Part shown: piece after piece, positions 2,133 to 20,000 of the stretch
Layout: each line of letters begins with the position of its first letter
Numbering within the stretch: the stretch's first letter is position 1
Assembly: GCA_026025075.1 (NCBI GenBank)
Contig: JAPEUI010000042.1
Coordinates: forward strand, 108,821 to 128,820
DNA length: 20,000 nucleotides
Direction of reading: 5' to 3'
Source of the DNA: Vezdaea acicularis
Taxonomy: Eukaryota
Notes under the pieces: model-generated
The model's database searches: none
What the model saw: the letters and a program-made list of their open reading frames with translations, nothing else
What the model was told of the DNA's origin: nothing
Made by a program: the position numbers and the translations under genes

Positions 2133-2533
2133 GTCTGTTCGTTTCCGTACAAGATGTGGATATTCATAGCACAAGACAAAAATCAACCGAAAAGAGCCGT
2201 GATTCTTTATAAAAGAGAAACAAGGTCTAGCCTTTCCAAACGCCTTCAGCCTCGTCGCACCTGAAAAAATCGAGGATCCATTGATAGGAGCCAATCAACC
2301 TCCATAAGCCCGTGTCGATGCGCCAAGGTGGCAAAGATATTGCCCCGTTTGTTAGTATCCATTTAAAGATCACACACGGTGCGTATTTCCTGCGTATAGC
2401 CTTGGGAGTCAAGGAGCGGAGTAGTGGTGCTGCGAACCACAGTTTTTCTTCTCAAAAGACAGATTGAGAGACCGGATCAGAGCATTTATCTGGGTCTCAA
2501 TTGACATTTGCAACACCTTAAATCTCAATAATA

Positions 2534-4384
2534 ATGTCTACAGCTTGTCTCTGTCTAGCGCTTCTTCTTTTGTCCCCTGCCGCTCTTGCTAGCGACGCGG
2601 CCCGGCCCGAGGATCGTCCGGTCGGTTGGCAAGGGGCCAATCACCGGCGCGGCACTTGGGACATCATCATCAATTGTTTAACCACGTTCATCGCCTGCAC
2701 GTGGAGTGTTCAACATCTCAACGTTCCAGCAGAGGAAAACAGTCAAGAGAGTTCGGCAGAAGAACAAGGCGGACTCTTGGTTCATCTATGGCGGGCCTAT
2801 TTGGCGAATACTTGGCGGCGTATGTGGCGACAACTCAAGTGGATGATTATCACGACACTGTTCCCTGAGCTAATCGTCATTCATGCCTACCTCGAGCTCA
2901 CTATGGCCCTCAAGGCTCTCTGGCGTATGAAAGGAAAGGGTAAGTCCGTTGAATTACCGTGGTGGTCCGACTGGCGATCTCTGTCATGGCCGCGAGGCTG
3001 CTTCTCCACAAGGCAGGAAGAGACAGAGGTTGAGAAGCAGCTTAACACAAAAGTACAGGCTGAAGTTGACAAGAAGTGGACGTTGACTCATTGCTTCTTT
3101 GCCAACATGGGAGGCCTATACTACACCACAGAGAAAAGCCCGCCATCTATTTTGACAGCCGTGCAGCTTGCAGAAGAGTCGGAATTTGAGCAACCAGAGA
3201 TTTCCGAGGACGAGATTAAGGACAAGAGCAAGCAAGATCTGTTTGCAAAAATTTTTGCAGTTTTCCAGATTCTGTGGCTTGTTCTGTCCATCATCGTCCG
3301 AAAATTTCGAGGATTAGCCTACTCACAACTTGAGTTAATCACATTGGTTTTCGCAGTGTGTGGCGTGTGCATTTACTTTCTATACTTCTATAAGCCTCAG
3401 AACGTGGAAAGAAGGATACGCATTGGACAAAAGAAAGAATCTCTAAAAGAAGCATCGTCCCGGGGTGGTCTCCAGCAGACTAATTCAGAAAGAGATGCCT
3501 CTTCACAATCCCAGAAAATCAAGAAAACATACGATAGTCTCTGGGATGTGCTGATGAACAAATCACATTCTACGAGCGATTCTAGTCATTCGCCTCTCAT
3601 AAGGGTTCCTAATGACAACATTCCGCTTTCTAAGAGCCATGTTGCCCATTCAGCCGTGGTTTTCTTGGCCTTTGCGTCAGGTCTCTTCGGCGCCCTGCAC
3701 GCTTTTGCTTGGGATTTCGAGTTTCCTTCTCGAGTAGAAAGATATCTTTGGCGAACGGCTACTTGCGTTGCCGCCGGCAGCCCCTTTGTTGGGCTGATTA
3801 CGATACCGCTGGCGCAGCTGACACGCTCAGCCGGCGATCCCGAAATCTTCAAGGCAAAATGTCTGCGCTTAATGAGCGAGTATTCTTGGCATGTCTCTGA
3901 CAAAGGCCCAATCAACGCCGCCTATGAGAAACTCGAGCATACTATCGTTTTTCCCGAGAATGACCAGCAGCAACAGTATGTCTACATATTCTCAGAGGGG
4001 CCAGAATCGAACGATGCTCAAGCAAGACAACTTGCAGGGAATCTGCTCGACTTCTTAGAGCTGAAAGAAGACTTTTTGGGAAAAAAACCACAAGAGCTGC
4101 ACCACGATAAAGAATTGATTGGGCACTTCCAAACACTGGTTAGCATCATTGAAGGACATGAGTCTAAAAGACTTATCGATCAGGCTAGGACAGACATTTT
4201 TCCACAGAAGAATGTGTTTCACAAAAGTTTTAATCAAGGTATTGTTGTTGTGACGACAATTCTCTACTGCCTAGCCCGTCTTTCAATCCTTGCTGTCGGA
4301 TTCTCAAGCCTTCGCTCGATGCCAGATTCTGTATATGTGAGGACGCCTTGGACGACGTTCATTTCAGTGGCCGGATCAGGTTAG
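2534..4384 (+). CDS. Predicted multi-pass membrane protein of unknown function (616 aa) with N-terminal signal peptide
   Basis: Long intact ORF with hydrophobic leader MSTACLCLALLLLSPAALA and ~7 hydrophobic segments. Motifs RGTWDII..C..T...CTWSVQHLNVP, WTLTHCFFANMGG, EIKDKSK.D..AK, QLELITL, LH..AW.F.FPS..E..LWR, SLRSMP..VY resemble a widespread uncharacterised fungal family (recognised from memory, not by search). Confidence 0.85.
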   Translation: MSTACLCLALLLLSPAALASDAARPEDRPVGWQGANHRRGTWDIIINCLTTFIACTWSVQHLNVPAEENSQESSAEEQGGLLVHLWRAYLANTWRRMWRQLKWMIITTLFPELIVIHAYLELTMALKALWRMKGKGKSVELPWWSDWRSLSWPRGCFSTRQEETEVEKQLNTKVQAEVDKKWTLTHCFFANMGGLYYTTEKSPPSILTAVQLAEESEFEQPEISEDEIKDKSKQDLFAKIFAVFQILWLVLSIIVRKFRGLAYSQLELITLVFAVCGVCIYFLYFYKPQNVERRIRIGQKKESLKEASSRGGLQQTNSERDASSQSQKIKKTYDSLWDVLMNKSHSTSDSSHSPLIRVPNDNIPLSKSHVAHSAVVFLAFASGLFGALHAFAWDFEFPSRVERYLWRTATCVAAGSPFVGLITIPLAQLTRSAGDPEIFKAKCLRLMSEYSWHVSDKGPINAAYEKLEHTIVFPENDQQQQYVYIFSEGPESNDAQARQLAGNLLDFLELKEDFLGKKPQELHHDKELIGHFQTLVSIIEGHESKRLIDQARTDIFPQKNVFHKSFNQGIVVVTTILYCLARLSILAVGFSSLRSMPDSVYVRTPWTTFISVAGSG

Positions 4385-4677: not shown

Positions 4678-5133
4678 CAGTGAAGCCTCGACATAAGGAT
4701 GGCCTCGGGACCGGCCAACCCATCCTTACAGCAGAGGTATTCCTATATCCAGGTATCACGTGAAGAAAATCAAGGTCATGTGCAGAGAATTAATCCAGTG
4801 AATATCTAGCACTACAATAGAATGCATGATGTGTAGAATAATTGCATCTTACAGCCTTATTTAGATTGCATGTGATCAGAACAATACAGTATTTCAGCAA
4901 TATGCTGGCTGTCTTGAGTGAAATATGTTATTTGATATCTGCTATCTGACTGGTCTATAACAGCTGTAAGGATATTTTGATGTAAAATTTAAGTGTGGGG
5001 ACCAAAGAAATTAAAAATATCCTTAAGGTGAAATAAATCCTTAATTACCACCAAAAAGTATTGGGACCAATGAACTCATCCTTACTGGTTGGGTATTCTT
5101 GTATTGAATCATTCTTATGTCAAGGTTTCACCG
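4678..5133. mobile_element. Non-autonomous Tc1/mariner-pogo-like MITE (~456 bp)
   Basis: TA|CAGTGAAGCCTCGACATAAGGAT at the left; ATTCTTATGTCAAGGTTTCACCG|TA at the right (reverse complement CGGTGAAACCTTGACATAAGAAT, 19/23 match, all mismatches transitions). TA on both sides; no coding capacity. Confidence 0.8.
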
Positions 5134-5665
5134 TAATAGCAATCACTTTCATCTTACCTGCAGTGCCTTCAGGGCTTCACTACCTGTATGTTTGTTTCGT
5201 GACAACAAATGAATAAAATGTATTTTAATTTGCAAAAATGAACTCTATAGTTTTTTTACCACCTAACCTAACAATCTAGAGTGGAGGGTCGTAAGGATTG
5301 TACATTTGCAAAATTGTGTCTTTTATTATTATCAACTTACCTTCCCGTGATCTAGCTTGCAGAACGACTGCGTTTAACAAATGCTAGGGATACATCATGT
5401 GATCACCGTTATATAAAAAAGCAGTGAAGCATTGTAAAATAGCTTCTTAGTATTCAATCGTATCAATCTTGAGAGATATTTATTGAATACTATCTACTAT
5501 TTACTATTGCCTGCAACTTGCATGCAATACGCATGCAACCATTTAAAATGAAGCTAATCTGTTGCCAGTCTATACACACGCGCCTTACACTTATTGTCAT
5601 AAATCTATCTTTCCTATAATTTAGCTTGCAGAACAATTGCGTTTAGCAAGCGTTGAGTATACATC

Positions 5666-6267
5666 TGTTGTGGAATAATAAGCAAGAGGCAGCGATGAGC
5701 CATAGGAGCAGGAAGCAAGTACGTAATATACCAACAGAAGCAGCCTCCTCATAGCGCCTGCCCATAAAAGCAGCGCTATAAGGCATGCGATTGCTCTGTA
5801 ATAGACAGCGCTTATTGCGCTGTCCTGACTGGGCAGTTGTGACCTGCATATATAGCATATCTTTATAGATAGAAACAATGCAACTCTTTGATCATAAACT
5901 TATATCAGAACTGTCAGGGCACGGGTGTCCTAACGCGTCAGGGCACTAGGCGTCCTGATATAGTATGGGGATCAAAGAGTTGTATTTCTTCTATCTAGGA
6001 GGATACGCTATATATACAAGTCGTCACGTGCCAGTCACGACTACCCGGTCAAGACAGCGCGGCAAGCGCTCTCTGTTGTAGGGCAGTTGCATACCGCATA
6101 GCGCTGCCCCTATAGGCAGGCGCTATACAAAGGCTGTTTATATTAGTATTGCTGCGTAGTTACTTCCTATCCCTGTATCCTGTCGCTACCCCCCTGCTCC
6201 CATATGCAGGTGTCCCACAAGAAGAACGCTTTGTCCTTAAAGTGTCTGGACATCTCGTGCCCTGACA
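5666..6267. mobile_element. Degenerate solo LTR (family C) interrupted by a nested LTR
   Basis: TGTTGTGG...CCCTGACA ends. Similar to the split LTR at 10134-10181/10565-10725/19312-19410. Flanks acatc/atatt differ by two C>T changes. Confidence 0.7.
5912..6222. mobile_element. Solo LTR (B/C-related), inverted relative to its host LTR
   Basis: Starts TGTCAGGGCAC (reverse complement of the ...GTGCCCTGACA end) and ends gtcccacaaga. Perfect 5-bp TSD AGAAC (5907-5911, 6223-6227). Confidence 0.8.
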
Positions 6268-6285
6268 ATATTTTATGATCATTAT

Positions 6286-6745
6286 TGTAAGAATGGACAC
6301 AAGCTCTGCTCCTTTTCTGAAAGCATGGCAGGCATATAACGTCTGTGTCCTGCTTTTGGCAAGGAAACATACGCTCAACAAGGTATACACAAGCTACAAT
6401 AGCTAGATATAATGATATGCGGCGGATATAATGATAATTGTTTAATTAAATAAGGCGATATAGAGATAATAGGGTCATATAAATATAATAATAATTGCCC
6501 AGTTAAATGAGGCAATATAGAGACAATAGGAACATAAAAATATAATGAAATCTTTTAGGATCTAGCTATAGCATATGGTAGGAAATTATTTGATGACAAG
6601 CCATCAGAGTGGCATCATTGAGCATATATAGATAAGGAGTTTGATCAGCGTTGTCTCTAGACTAGACTATAAGCAGCAATCATCTTATTTAATCCACCAT
6701 AGCTCTGCTAGCAAGCCATCAAAAAAATCACTACAGCGTCTTACA
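6286..6745. mobile_element. Solo LTR (family E) with a short internal tandem duplication
   Basis: TGTAAGA...TCTTACA ends; TSD ATTAT (6281-6285, 6746-6750). Inverted relatives at 8956-9374 and 9723-10133. Confidence 0.8.
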
Positions 6746-6798
6746 ATTATCATATACGTATAAGAATAAGCACAATAGATGCCTTTAAAGCTGAAAAT

Positions 6799-7176
6799 TG
6801 TAAGGACAAGCATGATAGCTGCCCTTGATTTTGAGAGCGTGGTAGGCCAGCGCCGTCTGCGGTCCGCCTACAGTGTTGCCGTGTGTTTAATAGGCTATAG
6901 AGGTAGGTGGGCCGCCAGCGGTAGCTAGCGGTGTCACAAGGCTATATAAATATAGCGATATAGCAATATAATGAATAGGCTGCGATTACATAAATAGATT
7001 CCAAGAACTAGCTATGAGTCAAGACTATTTAATGCCGCATCCCTAGCGGAATTGACTTGATATATATATAAAAGGCGCGCTGACTAAACGCCTCCTGAGC
7101 GCCACCGGCGTCCAAATAAGAACAGCTGTCTAGGGCACGCCGGCGCGCCCTAGGCGGATGCCATCGCGTTTTTATA
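6799..7176 (-). mobile_element. Solo LTR, family A (same family as the full-length element), 378 bp
   Basis: Colinear with 10726-11103 with many G>A/C>T changes. Flanks aaaat/agaac are compatible with a mutated TSD. Confidence 0.9.
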
Positions 7177-7307
7177 AGAACATAGTAAGATAATCCACAT
7201 TTGCATCCCGCCTGCAACGTCTCTGCATGTTTAATGGGCTATAGAAATAGATGGGCCGTCAACAATAGCTAGAATATCATTAAGCAGTGTAGGAATATAA
7301 ATATAAT

Positions 7308-7651
7308 TGTTATGGGACACGAGGTAGGGGGCGTCTAGGCAGGAGAAAGCATCGCCCGGACATAGGAGCTAAAGGGTAGTGGCATCTGGACGCAAGGATA
7401 AGGAGCGATCATATGGCGTCTACTAATAGGGGCAGCGCTTGTACGTCATGCGACTGCCCTAGGACAGACAGCGCCTGCCGCAACTAGCAGCGCTGTCTTG
7501 TCCAGGCAGCCACAACCGGATATCCTTTGCCCTATATATATAGATGAATCCCCTAGCTAGATGAATGGAACAACTTCTTCATAAACACCGTTTACTGACA
7601 GGACGCCCCGTGCCCTGACGTATTGATGCCAGGACGCCCCGTGTCCTGACA
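7308..7651. mobile_element. Solo LTR, family B (344 bp)
   Basis: TGTTATGGGAC...GTCCTGACA; perfect TSD ATAAT; highly similar to 12747-13088. Confidence 0.9.
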
Positions 7652-7933
7652 ATAATGATATAACAGATGATCTGCAGTTATGTGGATGGATTCTAATAAC
7701 TAGCTACAAGCCAAAATTATTTGATGTCAAAGTTTCTAACGGGCTTGATTTAGTATATATGTCAGTAATACGCTGAATAAACGTCTTTTACGCGCCGTAG
7801 GTGCGTAAACAAAAACAGTCCTCTAAAACGTGCTAGCATTTGTCATTGTGTTCTTACATTATTTAAGTTAATTCTTAAAGATTTATATCTATTTTTGTTA
7901 TAAGACAAAAGTTAATATTTATCTAAGCCATTA

Positions 7934-8343
7934 TATAATGACTGTACTAGCTCCTAGCTTCTATCCAGACTTTTGGGATAAATAAAGGGTAAAAGAACTA
8001 GCTTTGCTTCAGCTTTGCTTCTATTTTGCCTAGCTTCCTAGCACCTAACATAAAACCAAGTAGTTTTTATATCACTTGACCTAGACGAGCGTAGCTATTA
8101 GAGCTACCACGTTCTTTAAGATAGCTCTTCAGTAATCAACTCATCTATTCATCTGAATAACTAGTAGAAAGGCATCCTCGCTCTACTTTGTCTAATTTTT
8201 GCCTTGTCTCATCTTGCCTCCTTGCCTTGCCCTAGCTACTATCACTGCAATTAATTTTTGCCAGCAAGTCTTTGAGCCCTTGAGAATTAGCCCATACGCC
8301 TACAGACTCTCGCCTCCTGATGAAACACTGGCCTGTCCTTACA
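7934..8343 (+). mobile_element. Solo LTR, family D (410 bp)
   Basis: Colinear with 19419-19829; perfect TSD CATTA (7929-7933, 8344-8348). Confidence 0.9.
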
Positions 8344-8770
8344 CATTAACCCTTGAATTAAACTAATTAATGTTTTAATCTGTTAAATAGTAGATAGATA
8401 AAAAAAATTTAACATTTATTTATTTTATTTATATATATGTGCAAAAAACTTTATAAAACAACATCAATACTCTTTATAAATGTTTTTTTTTCCAAAATTT
8501 GACATGCATTCACTTATTTTCTGAAGTTTTTTGTAGAAAGCCACCAAAACTTTTGCTTAAGCTTATTGATGAAATTATGACCGCTAAATAAGATAAACCT
8601 TTGCTTAGAACATAGCTTAAGAAGAGTAATGATCAGCCTCTTTTAAATATATTGCTAATGGCGCTACATTATGGATTTGTAATTAAATAGTTTTTTACAC
8701 CCTGGCAGTATATATGATATCTCCTAACTCATATCATTATATTTATTTAAGATTATTATACTTATTATAT

Positions 8771-9575
8771 TGTAAAAACAGAAGCGGCATATGTTTAGAG
8801 CGCGCTAACGCGTCTTAAACAGCTATTTTTGCTTGAAAACCAGCAGTTCTTAGGAAATGCTTAGTTAACACACCTTAGATATATATATTGAGTTAATTCC
8901 GCTAGGAATTTGGCATTGAATAGTTTTAACTTATATTTAATTATTAGAATTTACCTGTTAAACGTTGTTATAACTTTCTCAAAAGCTTACCGGCGGAGCT
9001 ATGGCAAACTGAGCAAAATAAACGCCGCTTAAAGTTTAGCTTAAAGGAAGCGACTATTAAACCTTTTATCTATATATGTCCAATAGTGTTACCCCAATAG
9101 CTCATCATCAAGTAGTTTTATTTTTATATTATAGCTAGATTTTACAGAATTTTATAATAATTCTATTATATCCATATGAGCTCATTGTTTTCATATTACC
9201 CTATTCAATTGGGCAACTATTATTATATCCGCCGCATATCATTATATCCAGCTATTATAGCTTCATAGTCCGCGTACATTTTTCTAAATATATGCCTTCT
9301 TGCTGTAAACAGAACGCAGGTGTCATACATCTGCTACGCTCTTAATAAGGGCAGAATTTGTGTTTATCCTTACATTACCTACATAATTGCAGATCATCTA
9401 TTATATAGCTATAAATTATATTTTTATACTGCTCAATGATATTGTTAGCTATTGTTTGCGACTTATTGACTCTAATAATTCATTTAACATGCAATGACAT
9501 TGCAAGCAGGATGCAAACAATAATTGACCTATCACGCTCTCAGAATCAAAAGCAGCTATTGTGTTCATTCTTATA
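8771..9575 (+). mobile_element. Old AT-rich family-A-like LTR split by a family E solo LTR
   Basis: 8771-8955 plus 9380-9575 (~381 bp) follows the reverse complement of 10726-11103 with heavy transition damage. Confidence 0.65.
8956..9374. mobile_element. Solo LTR, family E (419 bp)
   Basis: TGTTAAAC...CCTTACA; perfect TSD TTACC; reverse-complement relative of 6286-6745. Confidence 0.8.
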
Positions 9576-9722
9576 ATTCTGTTTAATTTACCCTTAAAAA
9601 GAAAGCCTGATAGCCGTTGGCAGACATTAAATAAAAATACGCAGAGGTATAGAAATATCAAAATTATCTTTTACAACAAAAATAATTAATAAAAATAATA
9701 GCATCATGAAAAACAAGCTAAT

Positions 9723-10133
9723 TATAAGACACTGCTGTGACTTTTTTGGTGGCCTGTCAGCGGAGTTATAACAGACTAAACAAGATAAATGTTGCCTAAA
9801 ACCTAGCTCAAAAGAAACAATAATCAAGCCTTTTACCTATATATGCCGATAACGCTATTCCAATAGCTTGTTATCAATTAGTCTTCTATCATATGCTATA
9901 GTTTGATTCTACAAAACTTCATAGCAATTCTATTATATCTACATGAGCTCATTGTCTTTATATTATCCTATTTAATTAAGCAATTATCATTATATCCGCG
10001 GCATATTATTATATCTAGCTACCATAACCTCATAGCTTGCATACGCCTTGCTGAGCATATACTTTTTTGCCGCAAGCAGAACGCAGGCGTTGTACATCTG
10101 CCACGCTTTTAGAAAAAGAGCAGAACTTGTGCT
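9723..10133. mobile_element. Family E LTR, interrupted near its right end by the 10134-19410 nest
   Basis: Direct-repeat relative of 8956-9374. Stops at ...cagaacttgtgct where the other copy continues ttatccttaca; 'tat' resumes at 19416. Confidence 0.7.
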
Positions 10134-10181
10134 TGTTGTAGAACAACGGGATAAGAGCAGGGAGTAGCAACAGGCTATAGA

Positions 10182-10559
10182 TGTAAGAACGCGGTGGCAT
10201 CCGCCTAAGGCGCGTTGGCGTACCTTAGACGGCTGTTCTTGCTTAGATGCCGGTAGCGCTCAGGGGGTGCTTAGTTAACGCGCCCCTTATATATATATCG
10301 AGTTGGTCCCGCTAGGGATGCGGCATCAAATAGTCTTGACTCATAGTTAGTTCTTAGAATCTATTTATATAACCGTAGCCTATTCGTTATATCGTTATAT
10401 CGCTATATCTATATAGCCCTGTAACACCGCTAGCTACCGCCGGTGGCCCGCCTATTCCTATAGCCTATTAAACACACAGTGACACCGCAGGCGGACCGCA
10501 GACAGCGCTGGTCTACTACGCTCGCAGAATTAGAGGCAGTTATTATGCTTGTTCCTACA
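10182..10559 (+). mobile_element. Solo LTR, family A (378 bp), opposite orientation to the full-length element
   Basis: TGTAAGAAC...GTTCCTACA; reverse complement of 10726-11103 with transitions; perfect TSD ATAGA. Confidence 0.9.
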
Positions 10560-10725
10560 ATAGAGGCAAGGAACAGATACGTTATATACTAACAGAAGCA
10601 GTCTCCTTATAGTGCTTGCCTATAAGAGCAACGTTATGAGATATGCGACTGCCTTGCAACAGATAACGCTTACCGCATTGTGTTGACCAGGCAATTGTGA
10701 TCAAGCACATGATGACCTATATATA

Positions 10726-11103
10726 TGTAAGGACGGGCACGATAGCTGCCCCTGATTCTGAGAGCGTGGTAGGCCGGCGCCGTCTGCGGCCCGCCTGCGA
10801 TGTCACTGCGTATTTAATAGGCTATGGGGGTAGGCGGGCCACCGGCGATAGCTAGCAATGTCACAGGGCTATATAGATATAGCGGTATAGTGATATAATG
10901 AATAGATTGCGGTTATATGAATCAATTCCGAGAACTAGCTATAGATCAAGACTATTCGATGCCGCGTCCCTAGCGGACCCGACTCGATATATATATAAGG
11001 GGCGCGCTGACTAAGCGTCCTCTGAGCGCCGCCGGCGTCTAAGCAAGAGCAGCCGTCTAGGGCGCGCCGGCGCGCTCTAGGCGGATGCCGTCGCGTTCTT
11101 ACA
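10726..11103 (-). repeat. 3' LTR of the chromovirus
   Basis: TGTAAGGAC...GTTCTTACA; 8 differences from 18929-19306 by manual comparison, all transitions. Confidence 0.97.
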
Positions 11104-11116
11104 ACTGCCTCCCCCC
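11104..11116 (-). other. Polypurine tract
   Basis: Minus strand GGGGGGAGGCAGT directly abuts the TG of the 3' LTR. Confidence 0.85.
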
Positions 11117-11629
11117 ATACGAAGGCTCGTCCTCGAGCCTTGTTCCGACGTCTTGCCCTTACCCTAAGCTAGGGTCCTTCTAGGAGACATTTCTCCGTCG
11201 TCGGCTCGTCGTCCGCGGCGCTCCACTCTCCTAATTGCAGCGACGAAGTGAGGTGAGATATAGAAGTGAGGTGAGGCGACGTAGTGAGGTGAGTTGAGTG
11301 GCTATCCCTAGCTGATCTCACTGGACAAGGAGTTCTTCTCCTTCTAGTTATCGTTAGCTTACTCTTAGGAATAGATTCATACGCCGTAGGCGTCCTCGTT
11401 GGCCTGCGCCGTCTCTATAAGGCAAGATTCTTCCGCCTATTCAAACCATCCTTCCTACATATACGCTCCCCCACGTCTACGACGTCCTTCTTCTTGCCTT
11501 TGGCCCCGTCCCTTGCCCCCCGCGTCTAGTATACGTGTATCTAATACACGTATACCGTCTTCTTCTCTCCTCTCGGCGTGGCAAGAGCTCGCTCTTGTCA
11601 CTTCTCTTCTTCTCGCCGGCCTAGCAGCC

Positions 11630-13410
11630 ATGCCTGCGGACCATAACGTCTCTCGCCCCGCTGACGCTCAGCCGGCGCATCCCTATCGGCCTTTAAAGGA
11701 GACTGCGAAGATACTGGACCAGGCTGCCTCTCTTGGTGCCGTCGAGGGAGGCAAGAAGCCCTCAAAGAAACGGGCTCCGTCGTCTGCGGCCGCCCCCTGG
11801 GCTCGTTCGAGCAACCATCCGTCTCTTCGCGTCTCCGCTGAGCCTTCTTCTCGTGGTCCTTCTCTTTCGGCTGGTCAAGACACCGTGGTTCCCCCTGTCG
11901 TCGCTGCCTCTCCGTCGGCGGCTCTTGATCCTCCTACTCCCTCTGGTTTTGTTGTCCCGGCGTCCCCTGAGCTTGGCTTGAACTCTTTCGTGGACAGCGT
12001 AATGGATGAGCTGTATCCCGCCGACGAACAGTTGACGACTCTTGCTGCCCTGTCTCCCTCTGGTCCGTCTGCGTCTCTCCCTCAAGGGCAGACCAATGGC
12101 GATGATCTTGTCTCTACGGTTCAGCCTGGCTACTTCGACCCATCCTCGGATCTCTTGCGGCCTTGTTGTAAGCGCTGTGCGAAGCACTACTACGACGATC
12201 TGACTCAGATCTGCGCTCCGCCGGTGGGTTCTAGGTCTCGCTCCTGTACTCGCTGTGTGAATGGTCATAGACAATGCGAAGAGGTAAGATTCTATCTTCT
12301 TCTCCCCCAGAGTCCCGCTGACGGTCCTAGGTTCCCGACTTTCTTGTGCCCTGGCTGCGAGACATCCAGGTCCACGTCGATACTATGAAGAAGGATCACA
12401 GCGTGGCAGAGAGGCTCTTAGGCTGTCTCATGAATCGTTTTGAGAAGGCCTTGCTTGAATATGAAATATTCAACAAGAGAAATCCCCTGGATCAATGTGT
12501 TGGGCTCCTTCGCGACATCCGGGACTTCGCCGCTCAAAGTCTTGCCTTGAAGCGGAAGAAGGTGAGTGCTCCCCCCCTTTGACCCGCTAAGTCTGCGCTG
12601 ACGTCTCTTTCTTCTCGTATAGTTGGGCCTTGTGCCTTATCTGACGCCCCGTGAGCGGGCCATACGCCGTCACCTTACCAACCTGACTTTGACTATTATC
12701 CCCCAGTTCCATGACATGAAGGGTGTCCTTCATGTAGGTCGCGCCCTGTTATGGGACACAAGGTAGGGGGCGTCTGGGCAGGAGGAAGCATCGCCCGGAC
12801 ATAGGGGCTAAAGGGTAGTGGCATCTGGACGCAAGGATAAGGAGCGATTGTATGGCGTCTACTAATAGGGGCAGCGCTTGTACGTCATGCGACTGCCCTA
12901 GGACGGACAGCGCCTGCCGCGACTAGCAGTGCTGTCTTGTCCAGGCAGTCATGACCGGATGCCCTTTGCCCTATATATAGATGAATCCCCTAGCTAGATA
13001 AATAGAACAACTTCTTCATAAACACCGTTTACTGACAGGACGCCCCGTGCCCTGACGTATCGATGCCAGGACGCCCCGTGTCCTGACATGCCCCCCCTCG
13101 CAAGAAGAAGACTGTCGTCCGCGGCAAATGCTTGGAGCTTCCGGATGCCGAAGAAGATGATGGGCCCGCTGTCGCTCCTCCTGCGGTCAAGCGTCGCGCA
13201 AAAAAGGGTTCGGCGGTGCGTCCCGACACCTTCAGTCGCAAGACAGGTTCCGACATTCCCCATGCCCAGCTCCGGAAAGGTAAGGGTAAGGGTAAGGGTA
13301 AGGCCCCGCCAGCGCCACGCCGCCGTGCTGCCAGTCCCGCCTCTCCCGAGGTCAGCCATGGTTCCGCCGATGAGGATGAGGACAAGGCTGGGTGGGGGGA
13401 TAAGGATTAG
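11630..13410 (+). pseudogene. Antisense spliced accessory gene within the retrotransposon; Zn2Cys6-like Cys cluster, basic NLS-like patches; ~441 aa when reconstructed; exon 3 disrupted by a solo LTR
   Basis: Exons 11630-12283, 12331-12561 and 12623-12746+13094-13410. Introns 12284-12330 (GTAAGA..GCTGAC..TAG) and 12562-12622 (GTGAGT..GCTGAC..TAG), both phase 0. Start context gcagccATG; TATAA at 11416-11420; motif CX2CX11CX10CX2CX6C. Confidence 0.8.
12747..13088. mobile_element. Solo LTR, family B (342 bp), nested inside the antisense gene
   Basis: TGTTATGGGAC...GTCCTGACA; TSD cgccc/tgccc (one C>T); near copy of 7308-7651. Confidence 0.92.
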
Positions 13411-13709
13411 GGGTTCGTGGAAGAGTCGCCCGCGGGTAGGTGGTGGGGGTTATAAATTGACACGGATCGACTTGATCGGGGGTGTGCTGGATGGATAGCG
13501 TTGCTGCTTTGGAGCTTTAGCTCATTCTCAAAAACATTGTTTTCTTCTGCTCTTCGGAGCTTTAGCTCCGCCTTAATACGATTGCCTTTCCTCCTGCTCT
13601 TCTTTGTCTTGTCGCCAGTGACGTGTCGATGTCTTGCCTGAAGCTTCTTTGGGCTTGTTGTTGTCCCCTCTTCTTGGGGGATCCCCGCCGTCGTACCTCC
13701 TGCGGTGTG

Positions 13710-16700
13710 TCACCGTTGACGTTGTCTTCTCCTCTCCCTTTCATACGCCTCTAACGCCTCCTTCGCGTTATCCAGGTTGGCTTTAGGCTCCCACGTGTCT
13801 TCCGCCGGTGGGTAGCCTTCCCATCGTACTAGGTATTGCTTATCCCTACCGGATCCTCGCTCAGCGAGGATCTTCTCTACAACCCATTCTTCTTCCCCTT
13901 CCACTAGCTGGGCTGGCTGTCCCTGCGGTGCTCTGGCGGAGCCCTGGTAGGGCTCTAGGCAGGAGACGTGAAACACCGGGTGGATAGCCTTGTATGATGT
14001 TGGCAGCTTCAGTCGGTAGGCTTGCTTGCCTATGATTGCTTCTACCTCGAACGGCCCTAGCCAGCGGTGGTCCAGCTTCTTGTTGGGACGTCTTGTCTTT
14101 ATGTTTCGTGCCAATGGTAGGACGAGTTGTCCTATAGAGAACTCTTGTGGCTTATGGCGAGCGTTGTAGTAGGTCGCCTGCGCCTCTTTGGCGGCCTTCC
14201 ATTGGGCCGCCATCTCCCCCCTGATCTCTATGAGCCTCTCAATTCTCTCGCGTGCTGCCGGCGCCTCCCCCTTAGGGGCATCGTCCTCGATGTCCTGTGG
14301 TGCCAGTGGTAGGTATCCCATCAGGGCCTTGAACGGCGTCTCGCCCGTGGCTGAGTGCTTACTTCTATGTAGGCAAACTCTGCTGTGGCTAGAAGCGATA
14401 CCCAGTCATCCTGGTGGTAGTTGGCGTAACATTGCAAGTATTGCTCCAGCGTCTGGTTCTGTCTTTCCGTCTGGCCATCTGTCTGCGGATGGAATGCGGT
14501 GCTCAGCCGTCGTTTTACCTTCAGGTGGTAGTATAGGGTAGACCAGTATTGGCTGGTGAAGATGCTCCCTCTGTCCGTGACGATTGACGCAGGTGTGCCG
14601 TAGGTTCTGATTACCTTTTCAAAGATAATGTCAGCAAGGCCTATCGCGTCAAGAGTCTTACAGATAGGGATATATTTAGCCATCTTTGTATAGCGATCGA
14701 CTATCACAAGGATAGCGTCGTAAGCCCTTGGTCCCCCTTCGCCATCCGCTGCTTTGCCTGCGGGGGCTAGGCTGGGGGGCAGTCCCGTGATAAGATCCAT
14801 GGTGATCGATTCCCATGGCTCACTGGGTGGGGGCAACGCTTGCATCTCCCCGTAGGGCTTATGCCGTGGTGCCTTGGTTCGTTGACATATGTCACATTTG
14901 CGGACATAGTCGGCGACCTCCTTTCTGAGGGTCTGCCAATAGTATTTTCGACTAAGTAGAGCCGTTGTCCTGGCGGCTCCAAAGTGCCCCGCGTACGGGT
15001 TGTCGTGGTAGACCTTCATGATCTCTGCCTTTAGGGCTGCGTCTTTTGGTACGTATACCTTACCCTCAAATCGCAGTAGTCCCCTGTTGTCTACACGCCA
15101 CTTTTCAGGGTGCGATCCGGCTACGGTTTCCTCGCCATCTCTCAAGCTCTTCTTGATGTCTGCAGTCAGGGTGTCCCTGCGCTGCGTCTGTGATATCAGC
15201 TCGAGCAGGAAGGGGCTCGGGTCCCCATATGCCGTTTCAGTCCTGGCAGCAGTCACTGCCATAAACCGTGGTACGAGATGCGTCGGCGCACCAGTAACAG
15301 CCATCCGTATTCCCGGATGGCCTATCGAGATGGAGTCCCCGTCATGGGGGCTTCCACTTCTCTCCTCTGCGTCAGGGTTGCGGCCCTTCGGCGACTGGGG
15401 TGCGGCCCAGTCCTTAGTAGTGACTGCTACCGTGAGTTCTGATTGTCTTGGGTCAATGTCCATAGGGTCCCCCCTTAGGTGTTGCCTTTCATTATCCTGC
15501 TGATCCCGCAGGTTGTTCACAACACTCTCAGCAAGAGAGATTTCAAATTGGTACGTTGTACTGTCGGTGGTAGTCCCACGTACAATGCGTACGTAGGCCT
15601 CGATACCATCCTCGGCCTCAGCCAGATAGGCTAGTTTCCTTTGTAGGGTGGGTAGCATTGACGCTCCCAATTCCTTGTCTTCTACCCCGTAGTCGGGTCT
15701 TCTGCTAGGCCCACCGGCGGGGTTGTTCTTGCCCGGCCGATATTCAATTTCAAAGTCGTAGGCGGCCAGCATCTCGGCCCACCGGCCCTGCCGGTTGTTG
15801 AGCGACTTCGTGCTCATGAAGTATTTCAGATTGTTGTGGTCCGTCAGGACCCTGATCGTATGGAGGCTACCTTCTAAGTAGTGTCTCCAATGCTTAAATG
15901 CCTTGACTATGGCAAGGAGTTTGGCGTCGTGCGTTTCGTAGCGAGTCTCTGCGTCCTCCATCTTTTTCGACCAGAAGGCGACTGGATGCCAGTGGCGCTG
16001 CGTGCTATCCACTGGCGTGCCGTCCGCGGGCTAGGAGAGGATTTCCGCAATGGCAAAGCCGGAGGCGTCTGTTTCTACAAGGATCCTCTTCTTGGGGTCG
16101 AAGTGTTGTAGCACAGGGGCGGTAGTAAACGCCGTCTTCAGTTCTTCGAAGGACCGCAGCCCCTGAGCCGTCATTTCAAAAGGGCCGGTCTTCCTCCCGT
16201 TCTTGCTCCCCCGCAGCATCGTCGTGAGGCCGCTCGCGACCTTCGCATAGCCCTTCACAAATCGTCTGTAGAAGTTGGCAAAGCCTAGGAAAACCTGCAG
16301 CTCCCTGAAGCTCTTAGGAACGGGCCAGCTCCGGATAGACTCGACTCGGTCCTCTTCCATAGAGACGCCCGTAGGTGATACGACGTATCCCAGGAAGCCA
16401 ACCTTAGTCGTATGGAACTCGCACTTGGACAGCTTTGCAAATAAACTATATTTGCGCAGCCTGTAGAGCACGCTGGCGACGTCCTGGTGGTGCTGCTGGA
16501 GGTCGGTCGAATACACCAGTATATTGTCCATATAGACGACACAGCAGACGTCCAGAAGGTCCGACAGCGCCTCATTGATGTACGCTTGGAATGTCGCTGG
16601 AACATTCGCTAGGCCGAAGGGCATGACCTGGTATTCCCAGTATTCATACCGTGTGCGGAACGCCGTCTTCCACTCGTCTCCCTCCTTGATCCGTATCCTA

Positions 16701-17662
16701 TGGTATGCGTCTCGGAGGTCCAGTTTGGTGAATATCGTCGCCCCCGACAATCGGTCCAGGGTTTCGCTGATAAGGGGTAAGGGGTGTTGGTTTTTTACCG
16801 TCATCTTGTTCAACCTCCTGTAGTCGACGCAGAGCCGCAGGCTACCGTCCTTCTTTGAGACAAAGAGTATTGGAGCTCCAGCAGGGCTAGTGGATCTCCT
16901 AATCCACCCCTTTGCCTCTGCGTCCTGGAGGTAATCCCGTAGGACTTCTAGTTTCCTCTCGGAGAGGTTGTAGACGGGCATCCATGGTGGATCCCTCTGC
17001 GTTACGATGGCGTGTTTTTGGGCGTGGTGGAGGGGCAGCTCACCAGCCGCCCGCTCAGAGAAGACGTCTTCGTATTCTTCATACTCTTTGGGGACTCCTT
17101 CCCCTGCTTTCACGTTTCTCAGGCGCGCCCCCTGGGGGTTTGTCCATTCCCTCTGAAAGACAGCGTACGCTCGATCTCCTCGAGCTACCCGTACTGCCAG
17201 GGATTCTGGGCTGATGAGTTGGACCGACCCGGATCCGTTGGCGTACCGCCATGTGCCCCCCTACCAGTCGATCTTGGGATTGGCGTGCTCTAGCCATGGG
17301 TATCCTAGTATAAGCTCGTATTCCTCAATGTTGGAGGCCCAGAAGGTCTGTGTAGTCGTCCTCTTGGTTCCGTTCTTGTCGGTGACTCTGATCTCCACCT
17401 GAGGTTTGCCGTATACGGGGACTTTTGTTCCGTCGACTCCTTTTGCAGTCGTAGGGGGTTCGTTGGGGGTGTCCCATCCTGCCTCCTTGACCAGGAGCTG
17501 GGATGCAAGGTTCATTTCTGCCCCTGAGTTGATGAGGGCGGTTACCGTCTGCCACCCCTTTGCGGTCTTAACGTCTGCGTAGGTGGTGAGCTTTGATCTC
17601 ATGCCTCGTGTTCCTAGGCTCAGCGCGTTTGAGGCACTTGCTACTGAGCCCCCTTGTTTTTT
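13710..17662 (-). pseudogene. pol: pol polyprotein (protease, RT, RNase H, integrase, GPF, chromodomain), disrupted
   Basis: ALINSGA (protease, D>N), LRLCVDYR, LDLRDAYHRIRI, YMDN (YxDD>N), ETDASG, HDAKLLAIV, HHCC, ITMD/TDRGS/QTERQNQ, WLGPF, YLVRWEGYPPAEDTWEP. In-frame TAG stops at 17261-17263 and 16031-16033, and a 1-bp deletion near 14368. Confidence 0.95.
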
Positions 17663-17665
17663 GGG
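17602..17665 (-). promoter_or_regulatory. Predicted -1 ribosomal frameshift signal (slippery A AAA AAC plus stem/pseudoknot) at the gag-pol junction
   Basis: Minus strand CCC AAAAAAC AAGGG GGCTCAG TAGCAAG TGCCTC AAACGCG CTGAGCC TAGGAACAC GAGGCA; pol frame is -1 relative to gag. Confidence 0.8.
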
Positions 17666-18798
17666 CTGGATTCTCGTGGTCTGGTTGAACACTTGGGCGC
17701 GTAGTGTCCCTTCTTATTGCACAAGTAGCAGACCACATCCCTAAGGGGTCTGCGAGTCGTAGGTGGTCTTTTGGGTCCCCGTGGGGGACCTGCAGCTATG
17801 GGTCTCCCCTCTGGCAGCCCTCTCTGAGGCAAACCCTTGTTGAAACGGGGGCGTAGGCGGTCCTGAAGACCCTCTCTTGGTTTATACTTGTCGGCCTTTG
17901 CTTTCATATTCTCCTCAAACCGGCTCAGCCGCCTAATCAGTTCTGGCCTGTCGGTCATCGGAGACGGATACTCTGTGACCTTCTCGCGCAGTTCTGGTCG
18001 CACTTTTGCAAGGAGATGCTGCATCCTCTGTTTCTCGGTGTAGGATTTTAGTTTGCTCTCCAGCTGATCCATGTATGCTACAAACGACTGGACCGTCTGC
18101 GTAGCGCCCTGCTTTGCTTCTTCATACTTGAGAATCAAGGAGTGATATCGATTAGCTGGGCTCTGTATGAGGTCTAGTAGGAACGTCGCAAACTGGTCCC
18201 AGCTATACAACTTGCCGTCTTCGAACCGTAGGCATCGATTCCATGCGTCTCCTGCTTCACCCTTCATCGCCTTCGAGGCGTATGTGATGCGTACAAAGTC
18301 AGATCTGAAAGTCTTTGGATCTAGGTCGAATATTTGGTTGCACTCCCGGATGAAGTCCGTATGTTGACGCATAGTCTTTCCTAGATATTCAAGGGGCTTT
18401 GAGGGCGCCTTGACGTTAGTTTCTGCGTACTCGTCAACGTTTCTCCGCCGTCTCTTTGACGAGCTCGAGGCAGCGTCGTCGTCGTCTTCCGTATAGCTGG
18501 CGTCATCCTCAATGACCCCCCTGCGATACGCTCTGTCCGCCGCAGCTATGGCGGCTTTCTTTCTTTCCAGAGCGTCGAGGACCCTCTGTCTTTCTAGTAG
18601 AGCGTCTTGGCGCCTTATCTCTTCGATATCGTCTTATATCTCTTGATAGGTTAGCTGCTGGGGGTCAACGCTCCCCTGCCTCTGGCCTCAAGGGTTCCTC
18701 CTTTTGCGCCGTCGCCGCTCTGACGACGGAGCGATGGGGTCGTCCGAGCCTGATGACCCTCTGTCTTCAGGGGGTTGGTTGATCGGCTCGTCTCTCAT
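17641..18798 (-). pseudogene. gag: gag (capsid-like domain plus CCHC zinc knuckle), two premature stops
   Basis: ORFs 18688..18873 and 17641..18372 are in the same frame, separated by TGA (18688-18690) and TAA (18634-18636). Likely start caccATG at 18798; knuckle CYLCNKKGHYAPKC. Confidence 0.9.
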
Positions 18799-18916
18799 GG
18801 TGCTGTTGCTTCTATTGGTTGTCTCCATTGTAAGAGGTGATCTCGACGTTCGTGTGCCCCTGCGTGTTTTCATCTGATGTCCGTCGGCGGCTACCGGGCT
18901 CTCTCCCTGAGGGTAG

Positions 18917-18925
18917 ATCGAATAG
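18917..18925 (-). other. Primer-binding site of self-priming type
   Basis: Minus strand CTATTCGAT, 3 nt from the 5' LTR, is complementary to minus-strand ATCGAATAG in the LTR (19163-19155). Confidence 0.75.
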
Positions 18926-18928
18926 AAT

Positions 18929-19306
18929 TGTAAGGACGGGCACGATAGCTGCCCCTGATTCTGAGAGCGTGGTAGACCGGCGCCGTCTGCGGCCTGCCTG
19001 CGGTGTCACTGCGTGTTTAATAGGCTATGGGGGTAGGCGGGCCACCGGCAATAGCTAGCAATGTCACAGGGCTATATAGATATAGCGGTATAGTGATATA
19101 ATGAATAGATTGCGGTTATATGAATCAATTCCGAGAACTAGCTATAGATCAAGACTATTCGATGCCGCGTCCCTAGCGGACCCGACTCGATATATATATA
19201 AAGGGCGCGCTGACTAAGCGTCCTCTGAGCGCCGCCGGCGTCTAAGCGAGAGCAGCCGTCTAGGGCGCGCCGGCGCGCTCTAGGCGGATGCCGTTGCGTT
19301 CTTACA
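18929..19306 (-). repeat. 5' LTR of the chromovirus with TATA-like tract at 19190-19200
   Basis: 378-bp direct repeat of 10726-11103. Confidence 0.97.
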
Positions 19307-19418
19307 ATATATAGCGTATCCCCTTGGATAAAAACAATACAATTCTTTTATCATAAATTTATATCAAAACGCCTCGTCCTTGAAGTGTCTGGACACCTAG
19401 TGCCTTGACAGTGCTTAT

Positions 19419-20000
19419 TGTAATGACTGTATGAGCCCCTAGCTTCTATCAAGTCTTTTGGGATGAATAAGGAGTAAGGAGGCTAGCTTCGTTTCAGCTT
19501 TGCTTCTACTTCGCCTAGCTTCCTAGCACCTAGCATAAGGCCAGGTGGTTCTTAGATCACCTGACATAGACGAGCGTAGCTATTAGAGCTGCCGCTTCCC
19601 TTAGGATAGCTCTTTAGCAATCAACTCATCTATTCATCTGAATAACTAGTAGGAAGGCATCCTCGCTTTGCTTCGTCTGACCTTTCTCCTATCTTGCCTT
19701 GCCTCGTCTTGCCTCGTCCCAGTACTATCACTGCATCTAGTCTTCGTCTGCAAGTTTTTGAGTCCTTGGGAGTTAGCTCACACGCCTACAGACCCTCGCT
19801 TCCTGACAAAGCACTGGCCTGTCCTTACACTTTGATTGCTCCTCATACTGTACCTGTGTGAGCTATCTTCGTCTCACTATCATGGATCCTTCTTCTCAGC
19901 CTATTATGATCTCACAAGAGCAACTAGAGCATTTTTCAGCGATGTCTCATCAGCTTGAACAGATGCAGCAGGAACTGCAAGCTTTAAGACAACCAACACC
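19419..20000 (+). mobile_element. 5' end of a second LTR retrotransposon (family D): LTR 19419-19829, PBS 19832-19840, start of probable gag
   Basis: 411-bp TGTAATGAC...GTCCTTACA LTR homologous to 7934-8343; no right-hand TSD; PBS TTGATTGCT complementary to AGCAATCAA at 19616-19624. Confidence 0.8.
19882..20000 (+). CDS. Partial ORF, probable gag N-terminus (coiled-coil-like), runs off the window
   Basis: MDPSSQPIMISQEQLEHFSAMSHQLEQMQQELQALRQPT..., starting about 50 bp after the LTR. Confidence 0.6.
   Translation, partial: MDPSSQPIMISQEQLEHFSAMSHQLEQMQQELQALRQPT

Follow-up and report, generated by a model that had tools for sequence, protein, structure and literature searches.

In the 'aORF-3R' class of long terminal repeat (LTR) retrotransposons, an additional open reading frame (ORF) lies antisense between pol and the 3′ LTR. 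The class, reviewed in PMC7264820, calls for the ORF to occur in all or nearly all members of an element family or at least the majority, not in one or a few. Among its genes is brtn, antisense in the fungal chromovirus Boty, for which the source cited is Zhao et al. 2011, Virology 417:248 (PMC7264820, PMC8365987 and PMC4227169). In the portions of PMC7264820 and PMC11963269 available to us, antisense ORFs in this position are reported in most family copies of Grande, RIRE2, Retand, PvRetro13 and Boty, and Grande gene23 is described as having a nuclear product, its own promoter and a proposed regulatory role. Here we describe a gene of this kind in 20,000 nucleotides (nt) of Vezdaea acicularis (assembly GCA_026025075.1, contig JAPEUI010000042.1, positions 108,821–128,820 of the forward strand; hereafter the window), where a minus-strand Ty3/gypsy chromovirus (10726–19306), identified from its sequence and Pfam matches, holds an opposite-strand gene (11630–13410) in the spacer behind pol. 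Vezdaea acicularis is a lichen-forming ascomycete, and the abstract of PMC13616976 reports that a new species of the genus has been cultured. To our knowledge, the function is known for none of the antisense extra genes in LTR retrotransposons. We place the probability that the Vezdaea gene is a functional, element-borne accessory gene of its chromovirus at roughly 0.6. Going by its sequence, the arrangement is that of the aORF-3R class and the protein founds a new family.

The spacer between the 3′ LTR and the pol stop codon is 2.6 kb long and holds several plus-strand ORF pieces. Joining 11630–12283, 12331–12561, 12623–12746 and 13094–13410 gives 1326 nt encoding a stop-free product of 441 amino acids (aa) plus the stop. 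Exon 1 (11630–12283, plus strand; 654 nt, 218 aa) encodes a conserved N-terminus, a P/S/A-rich low-complexity stretch and a Cys cluster at aa 179–216. It is followed by intron 1 (12284–12330; 47 nt, phase 0, GTAAGA..GCTGAC..TAG), and read-through of the unspliced intron ends at a stop at 12386–12388. Exon 2 (12331–12561; 231 nt, 77 aa) encodes a core that AlphaFold2 predicts, at low confidence, to be helical, and has a GC content by codon position of 0.60/0.30/0.61. Intron 2 (12562–12622) is 61 nt long, likewise phase 0, and reads GTGAGT..GCTGAC..TAG. The first part of exon 3 (12623–12746) encodes GLVPYLTPRER..IPQFHDMKGVLHVGRA, the best-conserved block after the N-terminus, and the second part (13094–13410) a K/R-rich tail with a KG repeat, an acidic end and the stop codon TAG at 13408–13410.

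The product is basic (isoelectric point, pI, 9.3). Its Cys residues at 179, 180, 183, 195, 206, 209 and 216 give the pattern CKRC-x11-C-x10-CTRC-x6-C, followed by EEVP, and the runs KRKK, (P)RKKK, KRRAKK and KGKGKGKGK and an acidic C-terminal patch are all found in it. The KG run is encoded by a microsatellite, (GGTAAG)x4.2, at 13279–13303 (plus strand). An alternative in-phase donor, GTGGGT at 12224–12229 (plus strand), would drop aa 199–218 (the GSRSRSCTRCVNGHRQCEE region). NCBI's gene models for the window locus (P0002) and for one sister copy (P0003) both use it, lose 20 aa including CTRC-x6-C, and read ..CAPPVPDFLV.. at the junction; this donor and GTAAGA at 12284 are both plausible for a fungus. 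An earlier reading of this DNA (the original prediction) had joined three ORF fragments into the 441-aa frame through two canonical phase-0 introns of 47 and 61 nt with a GCTGAC motif in each, and had listed the Cys, K/R and acidic motifs. All of its coordinates check, and both introns and every motif are present.

The coding sequence lies on the plus strand, between the end of the 3′ LTR at 11103 and the minus-strand pol stop codon at 13710–13712, which is the aORF-3R position. The element itself is bounded by two 378-nt LTRs on the minus strand, the 3′ LTR at 10726–11103 (TGTAAG..CTTACA) and the 5′ LTR at 18929–19306 (TGT..ACA), which are identical at 370 of 378 aligned positions; every one of the eight differences is a transition. 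The same letters, ATATA, stand at 10721–10725 and 19307–19311 as target-site duplications, both in TA-rich flanks, and their presence at both ends implies that the whole stretch between the LTRs entered as one unit. Read from the sequence, a putative polypurine tract, ATGGGGGGAGGCAGT (minus strand, 11104–11118), adjoins the 3′ LTR.

Along the minus-strand ORFs, from 18633 down to 13713, the domains run in order from gag to the chromodomain. The gag ORF (17641–18633) gave weak Retrotrans_gag and zf-CCHC matches and overlaps the pol frame at 17641–17713. The pol ORF (13710–17713) encodes protease, reverse transcriptase, ribonuclease H (RNase H), integrase, an SH3 domain and a chromodomain, with strong Pfam matches to RVT_1 (3e-35), RT_RNaseH (1.5e-26), Integrase_H2C2 (5.7e-21), SH3_Tf2-1 (2.1e-18) and Chromo (1.6e-17), a match to rve and a weak match to an aspartyl protease. 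The order gag, protease, reverse transcriptase, RNase H, integrase with a C-terminal chromodomain, together with TG..CA LTRs and a short target-site duplication, identifies the element as a chromovirus. The original prediction had placed the gene antisense between pol and the 3′ LTR of such an element, as the minus-strand Pfam domains and the single ATATA-bounded insertion confirm, and had pointed to the Boty and Grande precedents, which are present as brtn and gene23 in the accessible text of PMC7264820.

The window copy carries several lesions. Its pol has in-frame TAG codons at 17261–17263 and 16031–16033 and a frame change between 14321 and 14405, where contigs of sister copies have one additional T behind 14367 (public DNA runs X1–X3, introduced below). 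The antisense gene is interrupted in exon 3 by a 342-nt solo LTR of a second LTR family (12747–13088, plus strand; TGT..ACA). A second copy of that LTR, 94–97% identical, lies at 7308–7651 with a perfect ATAAT duplication, and the duplication around the nested copy is imperfect (CGCCC at 12742–12746, TGCCC at 13089–13093). Judging by these lesions, the window copy is dead, its pol broken and its antisense gene interrupted by a later insertion, in a family that was formerly active. The element also lies within another repeat: 19421–19833, just outside the 5′ LTR, is repeated at 7936–8347 with 83% identity.

We looked for the gene in other copies at the protein and the DNA level. A word-indexed search of 5.8 billion proteins returned three relatives, P0001, P0002 and P0003. 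P0002 is the annotators' model of the window locus itself (376 aa, 100% identical over the aligned part), in which the first part of exon 3 and the solo LTR are skipped. It is the best match and is recorded as a hypothetical protein of a V. acicularis metagenome-assembled genome (MAG). P0003 (419 aa, 91% identical) lies on another contig (210 kb) of the same MAG and reads ...GVLHVGRAPPRKKKTVVRG... uninterrupted across the solo-LTR site; its junction, HVGRAPPRKKK, is the one predicted by excising the LTR and one target copy. P0001 (291 aa, 4.9-kb ENA contig) runs from exon 1 through intron 1 to the stop expected from the 47-nt frame shift, the counterpart of the read-through stop in the window, and P0007 on the same contig is exon 2 running into intron 2. 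On this contig exon 1 and exon 2 form two distinct ORFs, the outcome expected of a 47-nt intron.

At the DNA level we compared contigs from four public runs (X1, a moss metagenome; X2; X3, a soil metagenome unrelated to X1; and X6) with window positions 10700–14500. One X1 contig (118 nt on its shorter side) and one X3 contig (36 nt) join 12742 to 13090 and skip 347 nt, the length of the solo LTR plus a 5-nt target. Loose contig ends fall at 10726 and 11103/11104 in X1–X3, and other contig joints (such as 11104 to 12747 and 13088 to 10726) are LTR-to-LTR junctions that we left uninterpreted. In X1, X2, X3 and P0003 the GGTAAG repeat at 13279 is shorter by 6 nt, in frame; no other coding length change is common to three of the four runs. 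The gene is present in three protein-level copies (window/P0002, P0003 and P0001 with P0007), and parts of it are covered by contigs of all four runs. The nested solo LTR of the original prediction holds up in its second copy at 7308–7651 and in the sister copies that lack it, where the frame is kept, the imperfect duplication notwithstanding.

A more distant relative shows which parts of the protein are old. A phmmer search with P0003 against 1.84 billion cluster representatives (E ≤ 1e-3) matched P0002, P0001, P0004 and P0005. The last (E 2.7e-4) is a tandem-repeat protein that matches the low-complexity region, and we dismissed it. P0004 is a plain 213-aa ORF on a 2.2-kb contig. It belongs to the same 90%-identity cluster as P0006, a protein of 508 aa that is encoded on an 86-kb contig of the V. 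acicularis MAG and is 31% identical to P0003 (BLASTP 1e-35). A sub-threshold Pfam match of P0006 to an SCO4226-like family (18 bits, cut-off 28.5) was dismissed. Despite 31% identity, blocks from all three exons are preserved in this paralogue (alignment A3): an N-terminal MPADRxxSRPxxAxPAHPYRPSK..LDQ, a basic patch, WAxSxNHPSxR and FxDSV, the helical-segment block LLGxLxNRFExAL..FNK..LxD..F, of which exon 2 encodes LLGxLxNRFExAL..FNK, and GLxPxxTxRER...IPRFHDxxGVLHVGRAP in exon 3. At the point homologous to intron 2, P0004 and P0007 continue into 'VS..', the translation of an unspliced GT-type donor, and a splice in P0006 falls in the same column of the alignment. This shared splice position indicates that the position of intron 2 predates the split between the window gene's subfamily (A) and that of the paralogue (B). 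With the frame kept in sister copies, and the core and an intron position kept in a divergent paralogue, the gene looks real.

The conserved blocks also bear on the possibility that there is no functional protein here, the frame being a relic in decay or a side effect of base composition, with any function residing in antisense RNA, through double-stranded or small interfering RNA control. The plus strand is A-poor, which makes stop codons rare, and 24 of 500 dinucleotide shuffles of the spacer gave at least 218 codons, the length of exon 1. Exon 1 is moreover mostly low-complexity, the ESM Atlas 'recognition' value is low (1480), and an RNA-level role of antisense transcripts is discussed in the accessible text of PMC7264820. 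However, the longest stop-to-stop frame of the spacer, which holds exon 1, has 332 codons, and the 500 shuffles all fell short of it, the longest having 324. Taken by itself, ORF length is therefore suggestive, moderately beyond chance, and the homologues are the stronger support: the three exons come into frame solely via canonical introns, and the protein blocks persist at 31% identity in a paralogue that, as a plain ORF, stays open over at least 213 aa and that shares the intron position. We consider an RNA-only or relic origin very unlikely.

We examined how far the family extends. No relatives were found outside Vezdaea-labelled or environmental records, either among the 5.8 billion proteins or by phmmer at the threshold given above, and N-terminal peptide patterns matched 570 stretches of JGI metagenome contigs, none of which was confirmed. 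Scanning metagenomes with the integrase/chromodomain C-terminus recovered 18 distant chromovirus loci at 32–56% identity, and tblastn of P0003 and P0006 matched none of the 18 at E ≤ 1. In six of these loci antisense ORFs seemed to be conserved, but the signal was a mirror image of a longer ORF conserved on the sense strand, and Pfam on eight antisense ORFs from distant loci gave an unrelated dehydrogenase only. Because antisense conservation was misleading there, we checked the coding strand of the window gene specifically: on the minus strand its conserved blocks scatter over separate short ORFs, which identifies the plus strand as the coding strand. As far as these searches reach, the gene is lineage-restricted and no general feature of chromoviruses.

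Five of the distant loci, all from one metagenome, have a sense-strand ORF of 218–329 aa that lies 0.1–0.8 kb 3′ of the chromodomain match (plus-strand coordinates L004:4231–5169, L005:4782–5768, L009:2711–3388, L010:5718–6479 and L011:1963–2616). These ORFs share 41–86% aa identity, have CxxC..H..C knuckle-like ends in two loci and are unrelated to P0003. They may represent an extra ORF in sense orientation or the gag of a neighbouring element.

Unlike the conserved core, the Cys cluster is confined to one subfamily. The paralogue lacks about 75 residues that span the entire cluster and the site of intron 1, and this gap is no modelling artefact, since P0004 is a contiguous ORF. Our conclusion from the alignment is that the Cys cluster and the K/R tail are subfamily-specific additions outside the conserved core. 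Frame blocks and the intron-2 position are shared with the paralogue, and the Cys segment, intron 1 and the K/R motifs are absent from it.

This matters for a specific form of the accessory-gene reading, in which the product is a Zn2Cys6-type (Gal4-like) DNA-binding transcription factor. Gal4-type clusters have the spacing CX2CX6CX5-12CX2CX6-8C. The Vezdaea segment resembles them (PF00172) in its six Cys, an exact CX2CX6C second half and a following helical segment that could serve in dimerisation, and the protein is basic with runs resembling nuclear localisation signals. The Cys are kept in all three subfamily-A sequences that cover them (window, P0001 and, for the first half, P0003), as well as in the contig from X1. 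However, the spacing here is CX2CX11CX10CX2CX6C, with a first loop of 11 residues against 6, an expansion that the original prediction had itself pointed out. In Pfam, neither the 53-aa Cys segment nor P0001 or P0003 matched any family at E ≤ 10, and hence no Zn_clus, and none of the four exon pieces matched one at E ≤ 1. In the ESM Atlas, where scores below 0.9 are leads only, the Cys segment gave leads of at most 0.83, none of them Zn_clus, and whole P0003 had no usable match. The segment is moreover not family-wide, P0004 being contiguous from the N-terminus to the helices without it; the annotators' models drop half of it; and its predicted structure has a predicted local distance difference test score (pLDDT) of only 48.9. 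We regard a Gal4-like factor as highly improbable. The Cys segment may well bind metal, but the 'Zn-cluster-like' label of the original prediction, and the DNA binding deduced from it, are not supported. Two other candidates were dismissed: DUF3716 (PF12511), carried by 28% of the members of the Atlas cluster at rank 9 (score 0.79), has no Pfam match at E ≤ 10, and the one match of a PDB profile search with alignment A3, SixA at E = 0.11, is meaningless.

Several observations weigh against a functional accessory gene. Of the eight sequencing runs listed, none is RNA, and transcript and splicing are predicted here from DNA. The databases searched hold three subfamily-A and two subfamily-B proteins only, too few to speak of a gene carried by the majority of element copies. 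One of the X3 contigs lacks a single nt at 11735. KRKK, PRKKK, KRRAKK and the KG repeat are missing from the paralogue, which has S-rich tandem repeats in their place, so most basic motifs are not conserved; nuclear localisation and a regulatory role, which we infer from the pI, the basic runs and analogy, are weakened accordingly. Structure prediction, proposed earlier as a check, was uninformative: AlphaFold2 gave no usable fold for P0003 (4-row alignment; pLDDT 39.9, with helices only at about 204–297 and a small hairpin at 303–313), nor for the Cys segment alone. Selection between copies is likewise hard to see. An X1 contig over 12148–12537 has 13 differences, one in intron 1 and 12 in coding sequence (5 synonymous, 7 non-synonymous), a ratio pN/pS of 0.39 that is not significant in this single sister segment (Fisher p = 0.15), and copies share about 91% aa identity at about 92–97% nt identity, near neutral decay. 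Transposon copies decay neutrally once inserted, so a weak signal of selection is expected. The ratio neither proves nor disproves selection. In the gene's favour, no Cys codon or splice dinucleotide is changed in this segment.

Near-neutral divergence between copies would also fit a captured host gene, a Vezdaea P0006-type gene picked up once in antisense orientation (directly as DNA, or through read-through followed by recombination) and passively amplified with no role in transposition. P0006 itself, on its 86-kb contig in the same MAG and with a very different, S-rich tail, could be a host gene; this too counts against an element-borne function. The introns and host-like codon-position GC fit a cellular origin, and gene transduction is one origin of extra ORFs in the accessible text of PMC7264820. 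But at least three separate copies, and contigs of three further runs, carry the gene, and with no cellular homologue outside Vezdaea among the 1.84 billion representatives the host donor would be an orphan too. We think a merely captured passenger rather unlikely, and capture and subsequent co-option are compatible with each other.

If the gene is a working accessory gene of the element, it would be transcribed from the plus strand, probably under a promoter of its own within the ~0.5 kb that separates the ATG from the 3′ LTR, and two short spliceosomal introns would then be removed. Splice signals are strand-specific, so the genomic RNA retains the introns of an antisense gene and passes them on to new insertions. 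The introns would outlast retrotransposition, being present in the minus-strand genomic RNA as their reverse complement only. The predicted product of about 420–441 aa would be a basic, largely disordered member of an orphan family with a conserved core made up of the 30-aa N-terminal motif, the basic patch KKPSKKR, a four-helix segment and the GLxPxxTxRER..IPRFHDxxGVLHVGRAP block. By analogy with the proposal for Grande gene23, it might act as a nuclear regulatory or adaptor protein on the element's expression, silencing or integration.

The candidate promoter and 5′ untranslated region is the 526-nt stretch before the ATG (11104–11629, plus strand). In it, an 18-nt unit, GCGACGAAGTGAGGTGAG, is repeated three times at 11240–11293 (plus strand) and continues into GTGAG repeats to 11298; these are possibly promoter elements. 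A perfect palindrome at 11529–11555 (plus strand), about 75 nt 5′ of the ATG, consists of a 12-bp stem, GTATACGTGTAT, a CTA loop and ATACACGTATAC. The hairpin has a folding energy of −15 kcal/mol (z −5.7; 0 of 200 shuffles folded equally well), and the N-terminal read-through of P0001 suggests that the sister copy behind it has the hairpin too.

Compared by description, one of the closest systems is Boty brtn, which shares with the Vezdaea gene a filamentous ascomycete host, a Ty3/gypsy element with a chromodomain and an antisense position between pol and the 3′ LTR (accessible text of PMC7264820). This likeness is one of description only; the phmmer search with P0003 matched nothing outside Vezdaea. 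The plant genes of the class (maize Grande gene23, rice RIRE2, Silene Retand and Phaseolus PvRetro13) are likewise antisense between pol and the 3′ LTR and without database similarity, as far as the text seen describes them, but sit in non-chromovirus Ty3/gypsy elements (Retand lineage, PMC11963269), with no sequence similarity detected to the Vezdaea gene. Introns are not described for them in the accessible text of PMC7264820 and PMC11963269, whereas the Vezdaea gene has two. A keyword search limited to open-access main text turned up no account of an antisense gene with introns in any fungal LTR element.

A further parallel, drawn for such genes in the searchable text of PMC11963269 and PMC7264820, is HBZ of human T-cell leukaemia virus type 1, an antisense-encoded nuclear regulator of a retroelement. 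HBZ comes from an animal deltaretrovirus, contains a bZIP domain, has its promoter in the 3′ LTR and bears no sequence relationship to the Vezdaea protein; the likeness is one of architecture only. The HBZ mRNA is spliced. A bolder scenario would make the Vezdaea gene its fungal counterpart: an orphan, intron-bearing antisense family that co-evolved with Vezdaea chromoviruses, one subfamily of which gained a metal-binding Cys module and a nuclear-targeting tail and so became a regulator directed at DNA or chromatin, either a transactivator or an anti-silencing factor, with the choice between donors 12224 and 12284 switching the Cys module between half and whole. We find this full scenario quite unlikely.

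The rest of the window holds further open frames and what look like older insertions. A 653-aa ORF at 336–2294 (minus strand) consists nearly entirely of ankyrin repeats (Ank_2, 1.5e-108), and its DNA contains nine tandem copies of a 99-nt unit (262–1353) at 84–92% identity; it is probably a host gene whose repeats expanded recently. A 620-aa open frame at 2522–4381 (plus strand) matched no Pfam family at E ≤ 10. The stretch at ~5000–10700 is AT-rich (GC 0.31–0.47 against 0.53–0.61 in the element) and carries degraded copies of both LTR families (6792–7174, 82%; 10179–10561, inverted, 83%; and the solo LTR at 7308–7651) and a fragment at 9529–9718 with an inverted match to the LTR-end and leader region. 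The whole stretch resembles a nest of old insertions, possibly altered by repeat-induced point mutation.

Extra genes of LTR retrotransposons are the counterpart of retroviral accessory genes. In the searchable papers the fungal cases have so far been essentially one, Boty brtn, to which the Vezdaea gene would add a second. It also illustrates how automatic annotation can go astray at such loci: both annotated copies were probably mis-modelled, one without the first part of exon 3 on account of the solo LTR and both with the donor that halves the Cys segment. Antisense placement would let the element carry an intron-containing gene through reverse transcription. With spliceosomal introns, a paralogue that marks the core and a lineage-specific Cys module, the Vezdaea gene may provide a compact system for asking what such genes do.

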